From: Myxococcales bacterium
GTDB taxonomy: Bacteria > Myxococcota_A > Polyangia > Fen-1088
Direction of reading: 5' to 3'
Assembly: GCA_031423255.1 (NCBI GenBank)
Contig: JANPFD010000239.1
Coordinates: 1 to 27,873, forward strand
DNA length: 27,873 nucleotides
In this document: in pieces, positions 1,253 through 14,375 of the stretch
Numbering within the stretch: the stretch's first letter is position 1
How the letters are laid out: each line of letters begins with the position of its first letter
Notes under the pieces: model-generated
Told to the model about the DNA's origin: nothing
Database searches by the model: none
What the model saw: only the letters and a program-made list of their open reading frames with translations
Position numbers and translations under genes: made by a program

Positions 1253-1482
1253 GACCTTTTTGATTTTGCCCCAGATTCGACCGAAAGACACGTCCTCGGC
1301 GGGAATCCAGGGCCTTGCTCCGCGCTGCACTGTCGTCGTCGGACGTCTTCGTCGAACGTGACGCGCTGCCCAGCGTGCACCACTTGAGCATGCACACGGC
1401 AGCGCACCGCCGCCAGGCTTTGCCTGCGGCAGCTCATCGCGGGGGGCGACGGGGACTCTTGTCAGGGTCCCCGTCCCGATTG

Positions 1483-1554
1483 TGGAGCGACGCGGACTCG
1501 AACCGCGATCTCAGCCGTGCGAGAGCTGTGTCCTCCCAGTTGGACGATCACCCC
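1483..1554 (-). tRNA. tRNA-Ala (anticodon CGC)
   Basis: Hand-folded cloverleaf on the minus strand. Acceptor GGGGTGA/TCGCTCC with a G3:U70 wobble (Ala identity). T-arm CGCGG-TTCGAGT-CCGCG. Anticodon loop CTCGCAC. A73, no encoded CCA. Confidence 0.65.
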
Positions 1555-1606
1555 GGAATCAAGGCACCGGAGCCCCTCCCCCGGTCGTGCCGAGGGAGGG
1601 GCCTGG

Positions 1607-2128
1607 TCACTGCTGCAGAGATCCGCTCCAGTAGGCCGTCCATTCGGTCGGCATTCTCGAGGGATCCATGGCGACGGTCAGCGTGGGCAGCCACCGCGGC
1701 TTCGTCGGATTGCGCAGGAGACGCATCCTCGCCTGCGACGGGGTGCGGTTCGCCTTGGTGGCGTTGCACGGTACGCAGCAGGTCACGATGTTCTCCCAGG
1801 TTGTGCGGCCACCGGCCGCGCGCGGCAGAACGTGGTCGAAGGTCAGGTCCTCCGACGGAAGGCGCTGGCCGCAGTACTGGCAGATGAAGGCATCGCGGGC
1901 GTAGATGTTGAGGCGCGAGAACCTGATCGCCACCTTGTCGCGGCGGAAGCGACGGAGCACGCGCACGACCGCCGGCATCGGGTAGTCGCGCGCGACGCCC
2001 CTGATGGTGCGGTCGCGGCTGTACTCGAGCACCTCGGCCTTGCCGAGGAAGACGTCCACCACGGCCCGCGTCCACGGCTCGATACGCAATGGCCGGTAGT
2101 CCACATCGAGAAACAAAACAGCGGTCAT
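1607..2128 (-). CDS. HNH endonuclease
   Basis: 173 aa with CQYCGQ...DHVLPRAAGG...WENIVTCCVPCNATK (C-x2-C, His-Val, Asn, C-x2-C-N-x-K HNH signature). A strong RBS (AGGAGG, 2136-2141, about 8 nt upstream of the ATG) and two GC hairpins precede it on the minus strand. It is embedded between tRNA genes of the array. Confidence 0.8.
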   Translation of the reverse strand: MTAVLFLDVDYRPLRIEPWTRAVVDVFLGKAEVLEYSRDRTIRGVARDYPMPAVVRVLRRFRRDKVAIRFSRLNIYARDAFICQYCGQRLPSEDLTFDHVLPRAAGGRTTWENIVTCCVPCNATKANRTPSQARMRLLRNPTKPRWLPTLTVAMDPSRMPTEWTAYWSGSLQQ

Positions 2129-2229
2129 GGTGTCTCCTCCTTTCTTTTTTGTCGGGGGGCGCGTCGGACGCGCCCCCCGCGCCCCCGGCTCGCTTCGGCG
2201 GGCAAAGCCCGCCTGCGCGAGCTTTTTTG

Positions 2230-2303
2230 TGGGTCCGGATGGATTCGAACCATCACCTTTCCGGGTTTGAGCCGGCTGCGTCTTCCGGTTGCGCCACGGA
2301 CCC
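2230..2303 (-). tRNA. tRNA with Leu anticodon CAA but class-I (short variable arm) structure
   Basis: Acceptor GGGTCCG/CGGACCC, A73. T-arm GATGG-TTCGAAT-CCATC. Anticodon arm CCGG-CTCAAAC-CCGG. Variable region only ~5 nt. Confidence 0.5.
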
Positions 2304-2315
2304 GTCAGTCGTGCG

Positions 2316-2393
2316 TGGTACCTGGGGAGGGATTCGAACCCTCACTGGACACGTTCTGAGCGTGCTGCCTCTTCCAAGTTGGGCTACCCAGGC
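2316..2393 (-). tRNA. tRNA with Leu anticodon CAG, class-I structure, CCA encoded
   Basis: Acceptor GCCTGGG/CCCAGGT (G1:U72), A73 then CCA. T-arm GAGGG-TTCGAAT-CCCTC. Anticodon arm GCACG-CTCAGAA-CGTGT. Variable ~5 nt. Confidence 0.5.
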
Positions 2394-2398
2394 GTCTG

Positions 2399-2472
2399 TG
2401 GACACGGTCAGATTCGAACTGACACTGCCGACGTTCTCGACGTCGTTCCTCTGCCTGTTGGGATACGTGTCC
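2399..2472 (-). tRNA. tRNA with Leu anticodon GAG, class-I structure (C33)
   Basis: Acceptor GGACACG/CGTGTCC, A73. T-arm GTCAG-TTCGAAT-CTGAC. Anticodon arm CGACG-TCGAGAA-CGTCG. Confidence 0.45.
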
Positions 2473-2479
2473 GTGAACG

Positions 2480-2551
2480 TCCTGGCGTCGGGGATCGAAC
2501 CCGAGCCGTCCGCTTATAAAGCGGCCGCTCGCACCAGCGAGCCTCGCCAGG
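2480..2551 (-). tRNA. tRNA with anticodon UAU (Ile-like)
   Basis: Acceptor CCTGGCG/CGCCAGG, A73. D-stem GCTC/GAGC. Anticodon CCGC-TTTATAA-GCGG. T-arm TCGGG-TTCGATC-CCCGA. Confidence 0.5.
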
Positions 2552-2555
2552 CCAG

Positions 2556-2627
2556 CGGTCCCGACGAGGATCGAACTCGCCTATTCCGGTCGACAGCCGG
2601 ACATCCTCACCAGAGGATTACGGGACC
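2556..2627 (-). tRNA. tRNA-Asp (GUC)
   Basis: Acceptor GGTCCCG/CGGGACC, G73. D-stem ATCC/GGAT. Anticodon TCCGG-CTGTCGA-CCGGA. T-arm GCGAG-TTCGATC-CTCGT. Confidence 0.7.
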
Positions 2628-2656
2628 AATCGCGTGGGCAGCGCCCATCAAGGTTG

Positions 2657-2727
2657 TCGGAGCTGACGGAATCGAACCGTCCTCTACGGTGTGTAGGACC
2701 GCGGCCCAACCACTGGACCAAGCTCCG
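2657..2727 (-). tRNA. tRNA-Val (UAC), C33
   Basis: Acceptor CGGAGCT/AGCTCCG, A73. Anticodon GCGGT-CCTACAC-ACCGT. T-arm GACGG-TTCGATT-CCGTC. Confidence 0.55.
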
Positions 2728-2728
2728 G

Positions 2729-2800
2729 TGCGCGCGGGAGGGGTTGAACCTCCGCTCTCCAGCATGTCGGGCTGGCGTCTTTCCGTTCGACCACGCGCGC
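2729..2800 (-). tRNA. tRNA-Val (GAC), C33
   Basis: Acceptor GCGCGCG/CGCGCGC, A73. Anticodon CCAGC-CCGACAT-GCTGG. T-arm GGAGG-TTCAACC-CCTCC. Confidence 0.55.
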
Positions 2801-2801
2801 A

Positions 2802-2871
2802 TACCGGCGGACGGATTCGAACCGTCCCGCACGACCTTATGGGGGTCGCCTGCTCGCCCGAGCTCGCCGGC
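2802..2871 (-). tRNA. tRNA-Met-like (CAU), C33, truncated D-arm
   Basis: Acceptor GCCGGCG/CGCCGGT. Anticodon CGACC-CCCATAA-GGTCG. T-arm GACGG-TTCGAAT-CCGTC. Only ~16 nt between acceptor and anticodon stems. Confidence 0.45.
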
Positions 2872-2875
2872 GTGG

Positions 2876-2947
2876 CGCCCACGGAAGGAGTCGAACCTTC
2901 GCGACCAACGTTCGTAGCGTCGGCGCCGAATCTCCGTCGGCGTGGGC
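2876..2947 (-). tRNA. tRNA-Arg (ACG)
   Basis: Acceptor GCCCACG/CGTGGGC, G73. Anticodon CGACG-CTACGAA-CGTTG. T-arm GAAGG-TTCGACT-CCTTC. Confidence 0.65.
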
Positions 2948-2948
2948 C

Positions 2949-3024
2949 TGGTGTCCGATGCGGGCCTCGAACCCGCGCCTCCGCATTGAAAGAGCGGCAG
3001 CCTCGCCTGCTAGCCCAATCGGAC
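2949..3024 (-). tRNA. tRNA-Glu (UUC), CCA encoded
   Basis: Acceptor GTCCGAT/ATCGGAC, A73 + CCA. Anticodon CCGC(T)-CTTTCAA-(T)GCGG. T-arm GCGGG-TTCGAGG-CCCGC. Confidence 0.55.
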
Positions 3025-3041
3025 AGTCATTGGTGTCGGCA

Positions 3042-3116
3042 TGGTGACCCCAGCGGGTATCGATCCCGCTTCTGCACCTTGAGAGGGTGCCGACCTAGCC
3101 AGTAGTCGATGGGGCC
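3042..3116 (-). tRNA. tRNA-Glu (CUC), CCA encoded
   Basis: Acceptor GGCCCCA/TGGGGTC, A73 + CCA. Anticodon GCACC-CTCTCAA-GGTGC. T-arm GCGGG-ATCGATA-CCCGC. Confidence 0.6.
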
Positions 3117-3121
3117 CTGTG

Positions 3122-3196
3122 CCTCCTCGGCCGGACTCGAACCGGCAACCTCTCGCTTCGGAGGCGAGCGTGGTCATCCATTTCCACCACGAGGAG
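3122..3196 (-). tRNA. tRNA-Arg (CCG)
   Basis: Acceptor CTCCTCG/CGAGGAG, G73. D-stem GTGG/CCAC. Anticodon CTCGC-CTCCGAA-GCGAG. T-arm GCCGG-TTCGAGT-CCGGC. Confidence 0.7.
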
Positions 3197-3201
3197 AGAA
3201 G

Positions 3202-3272
3202 AGCGCGTGGCCGGAGTCGAACCGGCAGGGACGAGATTAGAAGGCTCGCTGGCATCCAGTTGCCGCACGCGC
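3202..3272 (-). tRNA. tRNA-Arg-like (UCU), enlarged 9-nt anticodon loop
   Basis: Acceptor GCGCGTG/CACGCGC. Anticodon region GCGAG-CCTTCTAAT-CTCGT. T-arm GCCGG-TTCGACT-CCGGC. Confidence 0.45.
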
Positions 3273-3276
3273 GCTG

Positions 3277-3348
3277 CTGTGGGAGTTGGATTCGAACCAA
3301 CGGCTTCTCGCTTAACAGGCGAGCCGATTTCCGCTCTCGCATCCCACA
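3277..3348 (-). tRNA. tRNA-Asn (GUU)
   Basis: Acceptor TGTGGGA/TCCCACA, G73. Anticodon CTCGC-CTGTTAA-GCGAG. T-arm GTTGG-TTCGAAT-CCAAC. Confidence 0.65.
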
Positions 3349-3353
3349 AGAAG

Positions 3354-3427
3354 AGCCCCTCGACCGACTTGCACGGTCCCTGTTCCCGGGTACAGGCCGG
3401 GTGCTGCGCTCTCTCAGCATGAAGGGC
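3354..3427 (-). tRNA. tRNA-Thr (UGU), C33, variant T-loop TGCAAGT
   Basis: Acceptor GCCCTTC/GAGGGGC, U73. D-stem GCTG/CAGC. Anticodon CCCGG-CCTGTAC-CCGGG. T-arm GACCG-TGCAAGT-CGGTC. Confidence 0.5.
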
Positions 3428-3429
3428 GG

Positions 3430-3500
3430 TAGCGGCGGCCAGAGTTGCACTGGCTTCCTCCGGGTTATGAGCCCGGCGTGCTCTCCCACACTTCGCCGCA
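3430..3500 (-). tRNA. initiator-like tRNA-Met (CAU): three G:C in anticodon stem and a 1:72 mismatch
   Basis: Acceptor TGCGGCG/CGCCGCT with an unpaired position 1:72. Anticodon stem CCGGG/CCCGG (G29-31:C39-41), loop CTCATAA. T-arm GCCAG-TGCAACT-CTGGC. Confidence 0.5.
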
Positions 3501-3501
3501 G

Positions 3502-3573
3502 AGCCCACGGGCCGAATCGAACGGCCTTCTCCCGGTTACGGGCCGGGCGCGTCACCATGTACGCTTCGCGGGC
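3502..3573 (-). tRNA. tRNA-Thr (CGU), C33
   Basis: Acceptor GCCCGCG/CGTGGGC, U73. D-stem GCGT/ACGC. Anticodon CCCGG-CCCGTAA-CCGGG. T-arm GGCCG-TTCGATT-CGGCC. Confidence 0.55.
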
Positions 3574-3661
3574 ACGAACTCGGTCGCCGTGCACACCCGG
3601 GTGAAATTCAGCCGCACGAGCGGCTGGAGGAACCGGGCGCCACGACGACCTTCTGGTCTTG

Positions 3662-3732
3662 AGCACCATGCGTGAATCGAACACGCGTCTCTTGCTTGGA
3701 AGGCAAGGGCCTAACCATTCGGCCAACGGTGC
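3662..3732 (-). tRNA. tRNA-Gly (UCC)
   Basis: Acceptor GCACCGT/ATGGTGC, U73 (Gly identity). Anticodon CTTGC-CTTCCAA-GCAAG. T-arm GCGTG-TTCGATT-CACGC. Confidence 0.7.
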
Positions 3733-3816
3733 GCGTCGGGCGCAGGCGAGCTGCGCTCACCGGAGCCCATCGCGGGGGGCGCGGGACCCTTGAGGGTCCC
3801 GAAGTAAATGAATGTG

Positions 3817-3888
3817 AGCGCCCGGCGGGACTCGAACCCGCTCCTTCTGACTGGCGGTCAGACATGCAGCCATGAACACTTCGGGCAC
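3817..3888 (-). tRNA. tRNA-Gly (GCC), C33
   Basis: Acceptor GTGCCCG/CGGGCGC, U73. Anticodon TCTGA-CCGCCAG-TCAGA. T-arm GCGGG-TTCGAGT-CCCGC. Confidence 0.55.
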
Positions 3889-3977
3889 GAACTTCTGACG
3901 AGCTCAGGCGGGCTTCGCCCGCCGGAGCTCGTCGTCGGAGGGCACGGGAACTCCTCTCAGGGTTCCCGACAAGGCGG

Positions 3978-4048
3978 AGACGAGAGAGGGACTCGCACCC
4001 TCATGACGGGTTTTGCAGACCCGCGCCTATCTCTTCGGCCATCTCGTC
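3978..4048 (-). tRNA. tRNA-Cys (GCA), variant T-loop TGCGAGT
   Basis: Acceptor GACGAGA/TCTCGTC, U73 (Cys identity). Anticodon CGGGT-CTGCAAA-ACCCG. T-arm GAGGG-TGCGAGT-CCCTC. Confidence 0.6.
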
Positions 4049-4050
4049 AC

Positions 4051-4136
4051 TGGAGGAGAGCGGAGATCCTGCCTCCCACACCCGAAGGTGCCACCCGGGT
4101 AGCATCCGGTGCCGGGCCTCGCCCGGTTCGCTCTCC
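4051..4136 (-). tRNA. tRNA-Ser (GCU), class II, CCA encoded
   Basis: 86 nt. Acceptor GGAGAGC/GCTCTCC then U + CCA. Anticodon CCGG-ATGCTAC-CCGG. Long variable arm CACC-TTCG-GGTG. T-arm GGAG-GCAGGAT-CTCC (variant loop). Confidence 0.55.
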
Positions 4137-4137
4137 A

Positions 4138-4225
4138 TGGCTGGGAGTGAAGGATTCGAACCCTCAGGACGTTAACCCTGGCCAGGTTTTCGAGACCTGT
4201 TAGGCGCCATTGCCTGCCACTCCCA
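4138..4225 (-). tRNA. tRNA-Ser (CGA), class II, CCA encoded
   Basis: 88 nt. Acceptor TGGGAGT/ACTCCCA, G73 + CCA. Anticodon CAGGT-CTCGAAA-ACCTG. Long variable arm. T-arm GAGGG-TTCGAAT-CCTTC (one mismatch). Confidence 0.6.
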
Positions 4226-4230
4226 AGACG

Positions 4231-4297
4231 CGGGCAACCGAGGAATCGAACCTCACTGGCGGGTTTTGGAGACCCACGTGATCCCAGATCGTCGCCC
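4231..4297 (-). tRNA. tRNA-Trp-like (CCA anticodon), miniature D-arm (67 nt)
   Basis: Acceptor GGGCGAC/GTTGCCC, G73. Anticodon TGGGT-CTCCAAA-ACCCG. T-arm TGAGG-TTCGATT-CCTCG. The D region is only GATC-TGG-GATC. Confidence 0.5.
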
Positions 4298-4305
4298 ATC
4301 GGCGC

Positions 4306-4377
4306 TGGTGGAGGCGGAGGGTAACGCTCCCTCCTGACCTGCTTGCAAGGCAGGGTCACAGCCTTCTGTACGCCCCC
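4306..4377 (-). tRNA. tRNA-Ala-like (UGC), G3:U70, CCA encoded, miniature D-arm, variant T-loop
   Basis: Acceptor GGGGGCG/CGCCTCC (G3:U70), A73 + CCA. Anticodon CCTGC-CTTGCAA-GCAGG. T-arm GAGGG-AGCGTTA-CCCTC. D region CAG-AAGG-CTG. Confidence 0.5.
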
Positions 4378-4381
4378 AGGG

Positions 4382-4453
4382 TCAGCGTGGGGTGAATCGA
4401 ACACCCATGATCTCGGTTCCAGGCCGAGTGACCAGCCATTGGCCCACACGCTG
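4382..4453 (-). tRNA. tRNA-Pro (UGG), C33
   Basis: Acceptor CAGCGTG/CACGCTG, A73. D-stem GGCC/GGTC. Anticodon CTCGG-CCTGGAA-CCGAG. T-arm GGGTG-TTCGATT-CACCC. Confidence 0.6.
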
Positions 4454-4460
4454 ATGGTTG

Positions 4461-4533
4461 GGTGACCGCCCGGTATCGATCCGGGACCTTCTCGTTCACA
4501 GCGAGACGTGCAGAGCCACTACACCACGGCCAC
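4461..4533 (-). tRNA. tRNA-His (GUG)
   Basis: Acceptor GTGGCCG/CGGTCAC, C73 (His identity). D-stem GTGT/GCAC. Anticodon TCTCG-CTGTGAA-CGAGA. T-arm CCCGG-ATCGATA-CCGGG. Confidence 0.65.
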
Positions 4534-4653
4534 CATCACAAACATCCACAAGAGACCCGACGGATGGGCGCGAGGGCCATCGTGGAGTTGTTCACCGCTC
4601 GGCACGTCACGGGATATCCGTGGCGTCCGCCGCGCTCTCCTTCCGTCGGTATC

Positions 4654-4728
4654 TGGTAGAGGCGCTGGGGATCGAACCCAGCCCTGCCGCTTATCGAGCG
4701 GCTGCACGTCCCATCGTGCTACGCCTCT
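4654..4728 (-). tRNA. tRNA-Ile (GAU), C33, CCA encoded
   Basis: Acceptor AGAGGCG/CGCCTCT, A73 + CCA. D-stem GCAC/GTGC. Anticodon GCCGC-TCGATAA-GCGGC. T-arm CTGGG-TTCGATC-CCCAG. Confidence 0.6.
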
Positions 4729-4738
4729 GTTTTGGATC

Positions 4739-4882
4739 GGAACCCTGAAAGGGTTCCGCACCTCCCGCGATAGGTGCGTCCGGGCAAAGCCCGTCCGCAC
4801 CTGCGCGTTGGACGCAAAACCCTGAGAGGGTTCCACACCTCCCGCGTAGGTGCATCTGGGCAAAGCCCGTCCGCACCTGCGG
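4739..4882. repeat. two tandem copies of a ~70-nt structured element (GGAACCCT-GAAAG-GGTTCC hairpin + GCACCT...AGGTGCG...GGGCAAAGCCC...CGCACCT), not tRNA-like
   Basis: Copy 1 is about 4739-4808 and copy 2 about 4818-4882, roughly 85% identical. Each has three stem-loops and an AGGTGCG segment that can pair with either an upstream or a downstream partner. Neither copy has a T-loop or an acceptor pairing. Confidence 0.6.
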
Positions 4883-5051
4883 GCGTTGGTCAGGGTGGCT
4901 GGAACTGCCCCAGCGACCTCCGGCTCCCGAAACCGGCGCTCATCTCACCGAGCTCCACCCTGATGTCGCGTCGGAGGAGGACGGGCTACGCCCGGACTCC
5001 TCCATCGCGGGAAGGGCTGGAAACCCTTTCAGGGGTTCCAGCCAAATGAAG

Positions 5052-5124
5052 TGCCCCCGTCTGGAATCGAACCAGCACCTTCCGCTCTTCAGGCGGACGC
5101 CATCACCAGATCGGCTACAAGGGC
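5052..5124 (-). tRNA. tRNA-Phe (GAA)
   Basis: Acceptor GCCCTTG/CGGGGGC (two G:U pairs), A73. Anticodon TCCGC-CTGAAGA-GCGGA. T-arm GCTGG-TTCGATT-CCAG(A). Confidence 0.6.
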
Positions 5125-5209
5125 ATCGTTGTGGCCGGGGTGGTGCCCGGCCACGGGCATCGTCATCTATTCGGTTGTCAGGGAGCGGGTCGATTGCTCG
5201 ACGAATCTG

Positions 5210-5280
5210 TTCGGGGACGAGGACTCGAACCTCGACATGCAGGGTCAAAGCCTGCCGGCCTGCCATTAGCCGATCCCCGA
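5210..5280 (-). tRNA. tRNA-Gln (UUG)
   Basis: Acceptor TCGGGGA/TCCCCGA. D-stem GGCT/GGCC. Anticodon GCAGG-CTTTGAC-CCTGC. T-arm CGAGG-TTCGAGT-CCTCG. Confidence 0.65.
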
Positions 5281-5304
5281 GTTCTTCTTCTGTTTGTCTT
5301 TGCG

Positions 5305-5375
5305 TTCCGGGACGAGGATTCGAACCTCGACACCTGCGTTCAGAGCGCAGGGGCCTGCCATTAGCCGATCCCGGA
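5305..5375 (-). tRNA. tRNA-Gln (CUG)
   Basis: Acceptor TCCGGGA/TCCCGGA. D-stem GGCT/GGCC. Anticodon CTGCG-CTCTGAA-CGCAG. T-arm CGAGG-TTCGAAT-CCTCG. A close paralog of the preceding Gln gene. Confidence 0.65.
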
Positions 5376-5380
5376 TCACG

Positions 5381-5452
5381 TGGGCCGCCAGGGACTCGAA
5401 CCCTGCTATCTCGATTAAGAGTCGAGTGCTTCGCCATCAAAGCTTGCAGCCC
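5381..5452 (-). tRNA. tRNA-Lys (CUU)
   Basis: Acceptor GGGCTGC/GCGGCCC, A73. D-stem GCTT/AAGC. Anticodon CTCGA-CTCTTAA-TCGAG. T-arm CAGGG-TTCGAGT-CCCTG. Confidence 0.7.
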
Positions 5453-5547
5453 GCTGTATTCGCGTGGGCGCAGCGGGGCGTTGCCACGCGGAGCCCGTTG
5501 CGGGAGGGTGCGGGAACCCTTTCAGGGATCCCGCCAAGATCGTTGGT

Positions 5548-13614: not shown

Positions 13615-14375
13615 ACAGCCACGACGTGGCCCAGGATCCACGACTTCGCGCGATCGTGCAGGCACAGCCTCACCCGCTCCTGTTCGCAACGGTGAGCGGG
13701 GCTCATCTGTATGGCTTCCCCTCGCCAGACTCGGACTTCGATCTTCGCGGTGTCCATGTCCTTCCGCCCGAGTTGGTCGTCGGCCTCGATGAAGGGCCGG
13801 CCACCATCGAGGTAGCGGAGCGCCGTCCGGATCTGGAACTGGATCTCGTCACGCACGACGCGAAGAAGTTCTTCGGGCTGCTCCTGCGTCGCAACGGCTA
13901 CGTCCTCGAGCAGCTCTATTCACCGCTCGTCATCAGCACGACGGCAGAGCACGGAGAGCTCAAGGCGATCGCCCGCACCTGCATCACCCGCCATCATGTG
14001 CACCACTACCGGGGCTTTGCCGGCACCCAGTGGGATCTCTTCTGCAAGGAGCAGCCGCGACGGGTCAAGCCGCTCCTCTACGTGTACCGGGTGCTGCTGA
14101 CCGGCATTCATCTGATGCGCACGGGGGAGATCGAAGCCAACCTCGTTCACCTCAACGAGGAGTTCAGGCTTCCCTACGTCCCGGAACTCGTCGCGCGCAA
14201 GCTGGAGGGACCGGAGAAAGCCACGCTTGCCGAACAGGACTGGGGCCGGCACGAGTCCGAGTACAACCGCCTTGTGGGCGTCCTCGACGAGGCATCGGTC
14301 GCCAGCACGCTGGCCGAGGAGCCGTCAGCACACCGGGCGCTGCACGATCTTCTGGTGCGCGTTCGCCTGAGGTGA
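13611..14375 (+). CDS. Pol-beta-superfamily nucleotidyltransferase, paralog 2
   Basis: 254 aa. Its start overlaps the previous stop (ATGA). Motif GAHLYGFPSPDSDFDLRGVH is the same NTase signature. Similar length and architecture to paralog 1. Confidence 0.65.
   Translation: MNSHDVAQDPRLRAIVQAQPHPLLFATVSGAHLYGFPSPDSDFDLRGVHVLPPELVVGLDEGPATIEVAERRPDLELDLVTHDAKKFFGLLLRRNGYVLEQLYSPLVISTTAEHGELKAIARTCITRHHVHHYRGFAGTQWDLFCKEQPRRVKPLLYVYRVLLTGIHLMRTGEIEANLVHLNEEFRLPYVPELVARKLEGPEKATLAEQDWGRHESEYNRLVGVLDEASVASTLAEEPSAHRALHDLLVRVRLR

Follow-up and report, generated by a model that had tools for sequence, protein, structure and literature searches.

Three arm-less class I tRNA-Leu genes in a long tRNA array of a Myxococcales contig

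Class I tRNA-Leu in described systems and in the window

A class I tRNA-Leu, with a short variable region in place of the long variable arm of class II tRNAs, has been characterised in Streptomyces coelicolor, where the type I tRNA-Leu(CAA) is leucylated about half as efficiently as the type II form, and deletion of its gene was not achieved (PMC6614811). Bacterial leucyl-tRNA synthetase (LeuRS) identifies its substrates by A73, U8-A14, A15-U48 and the elbow between G18G19 and the T loop, and not by the anticodon (PMC6614811, PMC2377443), and removal of the arm from Aquifex tRNA-Leu chiefly lowered affinity (PMC2377443). The tRNA-Leu of animal mitochondria is also class I with A73 (PMC6614811). 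Long horizontally transferred tRNA arrays, or L-arrays, have been described as well (PMC8421152, PMC4758250). In the trn operon of Anabaena, 23 of the 26 tRNAs were induced by translational stress, aminoacylated in vivo and found in polysomes, a total for the operon and not a result for each Leu gene (PMC8421152); trn, rtcB, HNH and slipin genes are enriched in one another's neighbourhood and co-regulated (PMC8421152, PMC10272220), and the slipin gene belongs to the TrcR regulon along with the trn operon (PMC10272220). Here, we analysed a 27,873-nucleotide stretch of contig JANPFD010000239.1, referred to as the window, in which a long tRNA array contains three consecutive tRNA-Leu genes with the anticodons CAA, CAG and GAG, none of them with a long variable arm. 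The locus is a normal member of a known, little-discussed class of arm-less tRNA-Leu. It is known in kind because type I tRNA-Leu (PMC6614811), annotated short tRNA-Leu genes of phages, and L-arrays linked to HNH and RtcB have all been published. In the papers searched, reviews included, we did not find the arm-less form discussed as a general feature of phage or L-array tRNA sets; two reviews make no mention of bacterial or phage class I tRNA-Leu, and one of them, PMC7609411, counts tRNA-Leu among the class II tRNAs.

The three genes lie on the minus strand, with tRNA-Leu(CAA) at 2229..2303, tRNA-Leu(CAG) at 2316..2393 and tRNA-Leu(GAG) at 2398..2472, and all were called by ARAGORN, with lengths of 75-78 nt. 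When scored with RF00005, the cloverleaf covariance model of Rfam, they reached 54.8, 51.8 and 46.3 bits, respectively (the last in a search run in E-value mode), and since all exceeded the gathering score of 29, they belong to the tRNA family. An earlier note, made by reading the sequence, had described three class I tRNAs in a row with these anticodons and had held that they were no artefact of hand folding; both points were borne out by these independent tools, which confirm the fold. Up to A73, the CAA and GAG genes span 74 nt each and do not encode CCA; the CAG gene spans 75 nt, has a G1-U72 pair and is the only one of the three with an encoded CCA. The variable regions are AAGGU, CCAGU and GCAGU in the CAA, CAG and GAG genes, respectively. 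At 5 nt each, they fall short of the stem-loop arm of at least 10 nt that defines class II, and the short variable region and A73 that the earlier note had reported for all three can be read directly from the sequence.

Each gene has a 7-bp acceptor stem, U8, a 3-bp D stem, a D loop of 11-12 nt that follows CAAC..GG.AGA, A26, a 5-bp anticodon stem closing a 7-nt loop, and a 5-bp T stem with the loop UUCGAAU, and ends in A73. In the CAA gene, the anticodon stem is made of four pairs and a G27-A43 mismatch, and the anticodon loop of the GAG gene, UCGAGAA, has C at position 33 in place of U, a detail absent from the earlier note. The D arm reads GCC-CAACUUGGAAGA-GGC and similar, and the Leu-type combination of A14, A15, G18G19 and a terminal AGA, together with A73, was found in all three genes. 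Positions 3:70 are G-C, C-G and A-U, with no G3:U70. The minimum free energy (MFE) fold is a cloverleaf for the CAG and GAG genes, and is not for the CAA gene.

No class II Leu gene was found in the array by ARAGORN with default settings or by Rfam at E-values up to 1, in agreement with the earlier note. A relaxed ARAGORN search (-ps90) returned a 93-nt 'Leu(gag)' at 2873-2965, but this call is an artefact: it overlaps tRNA-Glu by 17 nt and has no U33, the slot is occupied by Arg(ACG) in syntenic arrays, and it is with Arg(ACG) genes that the window sequence gives its best alignment. A class II Leu gene hidden in the 77-95-nt spacers of the array was rejected as well, the sole candidate being the one that overlies this Arg(ACG) slot.

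Distribution and conservation of the arm-less body

The arm-less body was surveyed with a pattern made of the D loop CAAC-N(1-3)-GGNAGA, fixed class I spacing, a variable loop ending in RGU, and UUCRAAUC. In a first scan, the anticodon was restricted to NAR, which allows GAA and AAA of Phe, and in a later scan it was left free. The counts are lower bounds drawn from an arbitrary part of each collection, and the pattern covers one sub-lineage, as the genes of Anabaena and S. coelicolor do not match it. In the window, the pattern was found at exactly the three Leu sites, and in none of 100 shuffles. In IMG/VR, it was present in at least 120 viral stretches, and the anticodons among the matches listed were UAA (62), CAA (30), UAG (18), GAG (12), AAG (4) and CAG (3); no Phe anticodon was seen among them, though GAA and AAA were permitted. 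The anticodon-free scan returned the same 120 stretches, with a Leu anticodon in 129 of the 129 matches listed. Bacterial contigs, with one genome per species, gave at least 120 stretches and a Leu anticodon in all 120 matches listed, distributed as CAA (67), UAA (41), UAG (5), CAG (4) and GAG (3). Among the matches listed, the body was thus linked to all six Leu anticodons and to none other, and, since every one of the 129 viral and 120 bacterial matches listed carried a Leu anticodon, the arm-less body is specific to leucine anticodons. In phages, the anticodon carried by the class I body tracks genome GC content, with UAA in AT-rich genomes and CAG or GAG in GC-richer ones.

Next, the structure of the family was analysed in the 200 unique sequences among the matches listed. 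A73, a position that the pattern leaves unconstrained, was present in 198 of them; the acceptor stem is fully paired (seven pairs) in 188, the T stem (five pairs) in 196 and the anticodon stem (five pairs) in 162, and all four Watson-Crick pair types were seen at most stem positions. In an alignment of 61 sequences, 98.4% of the cells were paired in the class I cloverleaf, and changes on both sides of a pair were observed in 416 cells, as compared with 92 in shuffles, affecting 19 of the 20 pairs. The covariation score was 0.989, against 0.228 for shuffles and at most 0.18 when the partners were slid by 1-3 columns. This is a fair test, because the stems are unconstrained in the pattern. Collectively, these results indicate that the members of the family are functional RNAs and that their short-arm cloverleaf is maintained by purifying selection.

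Relatives were also found in cultured phages. Megablast of the window array against them gave no match; sensitive blastn with the array tRNAs themselves did. In 108 INPHARED records, matches of about 76 nt to the window Leu(CAG) were found, mostly 80-87% identical and many of them annotated as tRNA-Leu, and these records included phages of Erwinia, Salmonella, Shigella, Streptomyces, Mycobacterium, Enterococcus and Pseudomonas, plus cyanophages. Annotated tRNA-Leu genes of 76 nt from Erwinia and Salmonella phages shared 85-87% identity with the window CAG gene, and in Erwinia phage phiEa21-4 the tRNA-Leu genes measure 77 and 78 nt and stand beside a 91-nt Ser and an 83-nt Tyr gene. The plasmid collection yielded three weak Mycolicibacterium matches only. 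Most of the 120 bacterial matches listed were single Leu(CAA) or Leu(UAA) genes of 74-77 nt from Actinomycetota (Mycobacterium, Amycolatopsis, Micromonospora, Nocardioides, Bifidobacterium and others), and these probably are housekeeping tRNAs, in keeping with the type I tRNA-Leu(CAA) known from S. coelicolor (PMC6614811). Arrays in at least seven phyla (Bacteroidota, Verrucomicrobiota, Myxococcota, Acidobacteriota, Actinomycetota, Chloroflexota and Planctomycetota) combine Leu genes of 74-78 nt with Ser genes of 85-91 nt and Tyr genes of 84-87 nt; one Phycisphaerales array has the same CAA/GAG/CAG trio as the window, and a Bacteroidota array (L177; L numbers are our labels for loci) additionally holds a class II Leu(taa). 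The premise of the earlier note that bacterial tRNA-Leu is class II is therefore too strong if taken as a rule without exception, since the arm-less body is widespread in phages, arrays and Actinomycetota, annotated in phages, and characterised in S. coelicolor (PMC6614811).

To see the two Leu classes side by side without ascertainment by Leu type, we used arrays that had been collected through the HNH homing endonuclease of the window (1607..2128, minus strand; Pfam HNH_5 and HNH), which is encoded directly downstream of the three Leu genes. The 11 arrays from IMG/VR held 13 class I and 21 class II Leu genes, and metagenome arrays with an HNH at least 57% identical held 23 class I and 22 class II unique Leu genes, so that roughly every second Leu gene of this array family is class I. 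Among metagenome loci with two or more Leu genes, five were all class I, two all class II and six mixed. By anticodon, the ratio of class I to class II was 2:7 for GAG, 9:5 for CAG and 10:4 for CAA. Synteny with the gene order of the window was seen in three IMG/VR contigs (L245, L247 and L248) and in the metagenome contig L260, and the closest syntenic relatives share the order Asp-Ile(UAU)-Leu-Leu-Leu-HNH; L245 also encodes an SPP1-type portal protein. The metagenome contig L260 has the same classes as the window, with GAG (77 nt), CAG (77 nt) and CAA (79 nt) all class I. In L247, an 87-nt class II GAG gene stands with class I CAG (74 nt) and CAA (75 nt) genes; L245 has a class I CAA (74 nt) with class II GAG (84 nt) and CAG (86 nt) genes, and L270 has class I CAA (77 nt) and CAG (76 nt) genes with a class II GAG (84 nt). 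The window is thus the all-class-I end of a continuum in which class I GAG is the least common element. Among related arrays, the window CAA gene was matched best by the class I caa gene of L245, the window CAG gene has its closest ortholog in the class I cag gene of L270, and the window CAA gene was 75% identical to the Leu(UAA) gene of L110, a relative with 53% GC.

The bodies of the two classes were then compared within the same phage loci and arrays. The class I D arm, GCC-CAACUGGCAGA-GGC, has a 3-bp stem and an 11-nt xAAyyGGyAGA loop, as in class II, where it reads GUG-GAAUUGGUAGA-CAC. Systematic differences were found elsewhere in the body, U8-A9 with C13 in class I and U8-G9 with G13 in class II. 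The window genes could not be aligned as arm-deleted forms of the class II genes that occupy the same slot in relatives, and origin by loss of the arm from a neighbouring class II ortholog was rejected, as the bodies differ systematically and give no orthologous alignment. Judged by these sequences, the two classes appear to be separate lineages between which anticodons are exchanged, and not the outcome of recent deletions.

Leucine decoding and the alternatives

We consider it likely that the three genes serve ordinary leucine decoding within a supernumerary, probably stress-used tRNA set. This reading is favoured because the body is Leu-specific, the identity elements are conserved, and the anticodons match the codons in use, none of which is expected of decoys or pseudogenes. 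All three genes retain A73, U8-A14, A15-U48 and a 3-bp D stem whose xAAyyGGyAGA loop positions G18G19. The Leu codons of the genes in the window are CTG (46%), CTC (36%), TTG (7.5%) and CTT (6.6%), and the anticodons CAG, GAG and CAA together cover about 96% of them. The earlier note had offered three options, namely mischarging decoys, substrates that resist tRNase toxins, and a genuinely unusual Leu decoding set. The last comes closest as far as decoding is concerned, but the set is not exceptional to this locus, as its body is widespread.

From the structure, family membership, conservation, Leu-specific body, synteny and context of the three genes, we infer how they may be expressed, charged and timed in their use. 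They would be true Leu isoacceptors of an arm-less lineage that circulates in phage clusters and L-arrays, the same lineage that probably supplies housekeeping tRNA-Leu(CAA/UAA) in Actinomycetota. The genes would be transcribed with the rest of the array and processed, with CCA addition for two of the three, and all three tRNAs would be leucylated by the host LeuRS, given that LeuRS reads neither the anticodon nor, strictly, the arm. The CAA tRNA would then decode UUG, the CAG tRNA CUG, and the GAG tRNA CUC and CUU. The array itself would be a supernumerary tRNA set of phage affinity, spread by the embedded HNH and placed beside an Rtc operon, and, by analogy with Anabaena, it is probably switched on upon damage to translation or to the housekeeping tRNA pool.

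Several observations weigh against this account. The E. coli LeuRS failed to charge the S. coelicolor type I tRNA-Leu(CAA), and the charging ability was mapped to the leucine-specific domain of the Streptomyces LeuRS (PMC6614811), so that charging cannot be taken for granted in a non-actinobacterial host. In the GAG gene, C33 stands where U33 is near-universal, and C33 in 9 of the 28 window tRNAs called by ARAGORN could mean relaxed constraint; the CAA gene has the G27-A43 mismatch, and the GAG gene of the Anabaena operon looks degenerate. Moreover, the single-sequence MFE z-scores of -1.3 to -1.8 are unremarkable, as is usual for tRNAs.

A further possibility, which would add a reason to ordinary leucine decoding and not replace it, is that the arm-less design is an adaptation of mobile tRNA sets, a tRNA without the arm being immune to defence or toxin tRNases that cut there and thus able to sustain leucine decoding during destruction of the host tRNA-Leu. 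Such nucleases are documented: retron-Eco7 and Septu attack class II tRNA-Tyr at its variable loop, and infection is rescued by a phage tRNA-Tyr whose loop differs or that is present in excess (PMC11555353, PMC13096335); VapC52 cleaves the variable loop of tRNA-Ser (PMC13273310), and nuclease-evading changes have been proposed for phage tRNAs (PMC10264068). In the window, a PIN-domain gene at 633-1037 and the many C33 anticodon loops of the array would fit the idea, as would the abundance of class I Leu in phages and in arrays linked to RNA repair. However, a nuclease that cuts the variable arm of tRNA-Leu was not found reported in the cited literature, the Ser and Tyr genes of the same arrays retain the long arm, the two Leu classes are about equally common in related arrays, and in Actinomycetota the class I form appears to serve as an ordinary housekeeping tRNA (PMC6614811). 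We therefore hold this adaptation to be unlikely, though the best of the alternatives. Its widest version, in which arm-less tRNA-Leu is a distinct, ancient lineage kept by mobile elements to give leucine decoding immune to variable-arm tRNases, with the window as a captured kit, is doubtful, and if anything a little more so. If it were true, the window would be a chromosomally captured 'translation survival kit' of nuclease-proof tRNAs and tRNA repair, a reading that draws on the C33 loops, the embedded homing endonuclease and the adjacent Rtc operon.

We regard it as improbable that the genes are decoys or sponges that soak up tRNases or tRNA-binding factors without being used in translation. 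C33 and other non-canonical features are frequent in the array, which speaks for such a role, but a decoy needs no Leu anticodon on a Leu body, and all 129 viral matches listed have one; this exclusive tie counts against the decoys considered in the earlier note. Nor does a decoy need to track codon usage or to keep A73 as the family does, and the operonic tRNAs of Anabaena are aminoacylated and found in polysomes (PMC8421152). That the genes are decaying, non-functional copies that still score as tRNAs is more improbable yet. The C33 of the GAG gene, the G27-A43 mismatch of the CAA gene and degenerate tRNA-like genes in several neighbouring slots point that way, but the Rfam scores are 46-55 bits, the helices are intact, compensatory change in the family is strong, and syntenic relatives keep intact class I genes at the same positions. 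Recoding of Leu codons through charging by a non-Leu synthetase, the mischarging suggested in the earlier note, has nothing beyond the unusual class I shape in its favour and is hardly credible, as there is no G3:U70, no long arm for seryl-tRNA synthetase and no anticodon fit for the anticodon-reading synthetases, to which these anticodons are foreign, and as the D arm and A73 are of Leu type and the body is exclusive, among the matches listed, to all six Leu anticodons.

With regard to ordinary leucine decoding, the result for this locus is mostly corrective, in that the three genes are standard equipment of mobile tRNA arrays and not decoys or artefacts. For tRNA annotation, it means that isotype models and length filters may mishandle arm-less Leu genes. 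It also bears on how the LeuRS of diverse hosts accepts both Leu forms, and on the purpose of phage and array tRNAs, codon supply or evasion of tRNA-cutting defences. The generality of arm-less Leu may deserve a short note; it is a result of the survey and not a property of the window locus.

The array, its flanks and the comparison with known systems

The array (1482..5738, minus strand) contains 28 genes called by ARAGORN and about seven further tRNA-like genes on one strand. At 4.26 kb, it falls within the L-array definition of at least 20 genes at two or more per kb; it has the linked HNH homing endonuclease of L-arrays and a patchy, cross-phylum distribution with mobile relatives, the syntenic IMG/VR arrays, one of them with the portal gene. 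The long variable arm is kept in tRNA-Ser(CGA) (class II, 88 nt, 4138..4225, minus strand) and tRNA-Tyr(GUA) (class II, 89 nt, 5650..5738, minus strand), the only long-arm tRNAs called in the array by default ARAGORN. In five related arrays (L265, L268, L272, L275 and L281), Tyr(GUA) of 78-79 nt has a medium variable arm and a shortened D arm, and the 74-nt Tyr of L119 is the only one in a related array short enough for class I. A tRNA-Ile(UAU), with an anticodon seldom found in bacteria, immediately precedes the Leu genes, at 2479-2551; the same tRNA was found in L177, L187, L189, L227, L245, L248 and L260, and the copy in L110 is mislabelled Tyr(ata) by ARAGORN.

The window HNH is 60-78% identical to the HNH genes that follow Leu tRNAs in related arrays, and shows 33% identity (E-value of 8e-26) to all8564 of Anabaena, the HNH gene adjoining the trn operon. 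It has more than 500 relatives in metagenomes. Homologs at least 57% identical were always embedded in tRNA arrays (loci L245-L259 and L260-L284), which indicates that the array-associated HNH is a distinct subfamily; homologs at most 50% identical were found at loci without tRNA genes, with L324 (52% identical, in an array) as an exception.

The nine tRNAs of the array with C33 are Leu(gag), Val(tac), Val(gac), Met(cat) at 2802-2871, Thr(cgt), Gly(gcc), Pro(tgg), Ile(gat) and Tyr(gta). C33 was also present in 9 of 16 class I Leu(GAG) genes elsewhere, at lower frequency in other GC-rich arrays (L234, L201, L225, L182, L187 and L189), and in none of the tRNAs of the AT-richer sets of Anabaena, phiEa21-4 and L110; over 1385 unique phage and array tRNAs, its frequency was 5.3%, with a peak in Leu(GAG), 13 of 24. 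The C33 loops could reflect GC-driven drift or evasion of anticodon nucleases.

The 77-95-nt spacers hold tRNA-like genes missed by default ARAGORN: an Asp(GUC) at 2556-2627 (Rfam, 52.9 bits), an Arg(ACG)-like gene with an odd D arm at 2872-2948, a Thr-like gene with the loop CCUGUAC at 3349-3427, a class II Ser(GCU)-like gene with an odd D arm at 4049-4137, a Trp(CCA) at about 4228-4303 that strongly matches the Trp gene of L245, an Ala(UGC)-like gene at 4306-4377, and a Pro(CGG) at 4887-4962 (Rfam, 40 bits). With these included, the array would cover all 20 amino acids. Several spacers are filled by a hairpin, GGAACCCUGAAAGGGUUC, usually followed by CCCUCCCGC and a second GC-rich hairpin, at 4739-4757, 4816-4834, 5021-5038 and 5514-5531, with variants in 3733-3815 and 3889-3975; the pattern gave six matches over the two strands (four sites), with 0.01 expected. 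This hairpin may be a processing or regulatory element or a small array-specific repeat family. Scanning the array for sigma-70 promoters and terminators gave nothing above chance. Sub-threshold Rfam matches to 'Plastid-ycf2 5UTR' antisense to tRNAs (2229-2303, 2728-2800 and 3661-3732, plus strand) and a weak CRISPR-DR28 match (E-value of 0.02) at 2201-2224, a GC-rich hairpin just downstream of tRNA-Leu(CAA), look spurious.

About 3 kb from the array stands a complete RNA-repair module (8656-14375). It comprises RtcR, a sigma-54-dependent regulator (8656..10257, minus strand; Pfam RtcR, 272 bits, and Sigma54_activat), divergent from the RNA ligase gene rtcB (10375-11634, plus strand; Pfam RtcB, 433 bits) and the RNA 3'-phosphate cyclase gene rtcA (11637-12650, plus strand; Pfam RTC, 265 bits), and then, downstream of rtcA, two genes for RlaP, a nucleotidyltransferase of the RNA-repair pathway (12022..14375, plus strand; Pfam RlaP, 149 and 185 bits). 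The sigma-54 RtcR argues against an Actinomycetota host, and weak similarity to a Myxococcales MAG is a further clue; the only exact protein matches came from a shorter copy of the contig in a soil-type metagenome (Logan SRR20217180). A slipin-like SPFH/Band_7 gene is found at 7162..8268 (minus strand; Pfam Band_7). Homologs of RtcB and of the HNH recur beside other arrays bearing class I Leu, in agreement with the neighbourhood and co-regulation published for Anabaena (PMC8421152, PMC10272220); RtcB homologs stand next to the arrays of L182, L187, L189, L078, L104 and L009, and the L182 array is flanked by a Band_7 homolog too. The PIN-domain gene, which is VapC-like, lies just past the last tRNA of the array, and an open reading frame at 1025-1330, with no Pfam match, overlaps it upstream, in the place of an antitoxin gene; the PIN-domain gene is a possible tRNase toxin beside the tRNA array. 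The rest of the window encodes a two-component system, VWA proteins, TatC and an M28 peptidase, and no phage structural gene was seen in it. As the surrounding genes are ordinary bacterial ones, the array lies in a bacterial replicon and not in an obvious prophage.

Among the described systems, the animal mitochondrial tRNA-Leu belongs to an unrelated, reduced organellar system with its own LeuRS, whereas the D and T loops of the window genes are fully canonical; the human mitochondrial tRNA-Leu was not charged by the S. coelicolor LeuRS (PMC6614811). The type I tRNA-Leu(CAA) of S. coelicolor shares with the window genes a 5-nt variable loop, U8-A14, A73 and the presence of long-arm Ser and Tyr tRNAs alongside. 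However, it comes from a lone housekeeping gene, is accompanied by four class II isoacceptors and has C48, while the window has three isoacceptors, all class I with U48, in a mobile array of a probably non-actinobacterial host, as its sigma-54 RtcR suggests. Leucylation by a bacterial LeuRS, shown for the S. coelicolor tRNA, is predicted for the window genes. The phage phiEa21-4 and other FelixO1-like phages resemble the window in their tRNA-Leu genes of 75-78 nt, 85-87% identical to the window CAG gene. The contigs L245, L247 and L248 are like the window in gene order and unlike it in their mixture of class I and class II Leu, the window having class I only. Unlike the phage clusters, the window array is flanked by bacterial genes (Rtc, the two-component system and TatC).

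The trn operon of Anabaena (Nostoc) sp. PCC 7120, which was picked independently of the body pattern, is an L-array with short Leu genes as well. It lies at about 50.0-52.2 kb of plasmid delta, the first 50 kb of which are without tRNA genes, and it contains four Leu genes of 75, 78, 75 and 78 nt, together with a Ser(gct) of 90 nt and a Tyr of 87 nt. The available portions of the two papers on this L-array (PMC8421152, PMC10272220) make no comment on its arm-less Leu genes. The Leu anticodons are UAA, GAG, UAG and CAA in Anabaena, and GAG, CAG and CAA in the window; C33 loops are absent from the Anabaena array and present in that of the window. Both systems have a single-strand array, a homologous HNH, short Leu genes, and a functional or positional connection with rtcB and a slipin/Band_7 gene. 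The connection with rtcB is regulatory in Anabaena and acts at a distance via the TrcR repressor, whereas RtcR, RtcBA and RlaP are physically adjacent to the array in the window. That an L-array and an Rtc operon under RtcR control stand side by side lends further weight to the functional link proposed from co-regulation in Anabaena.

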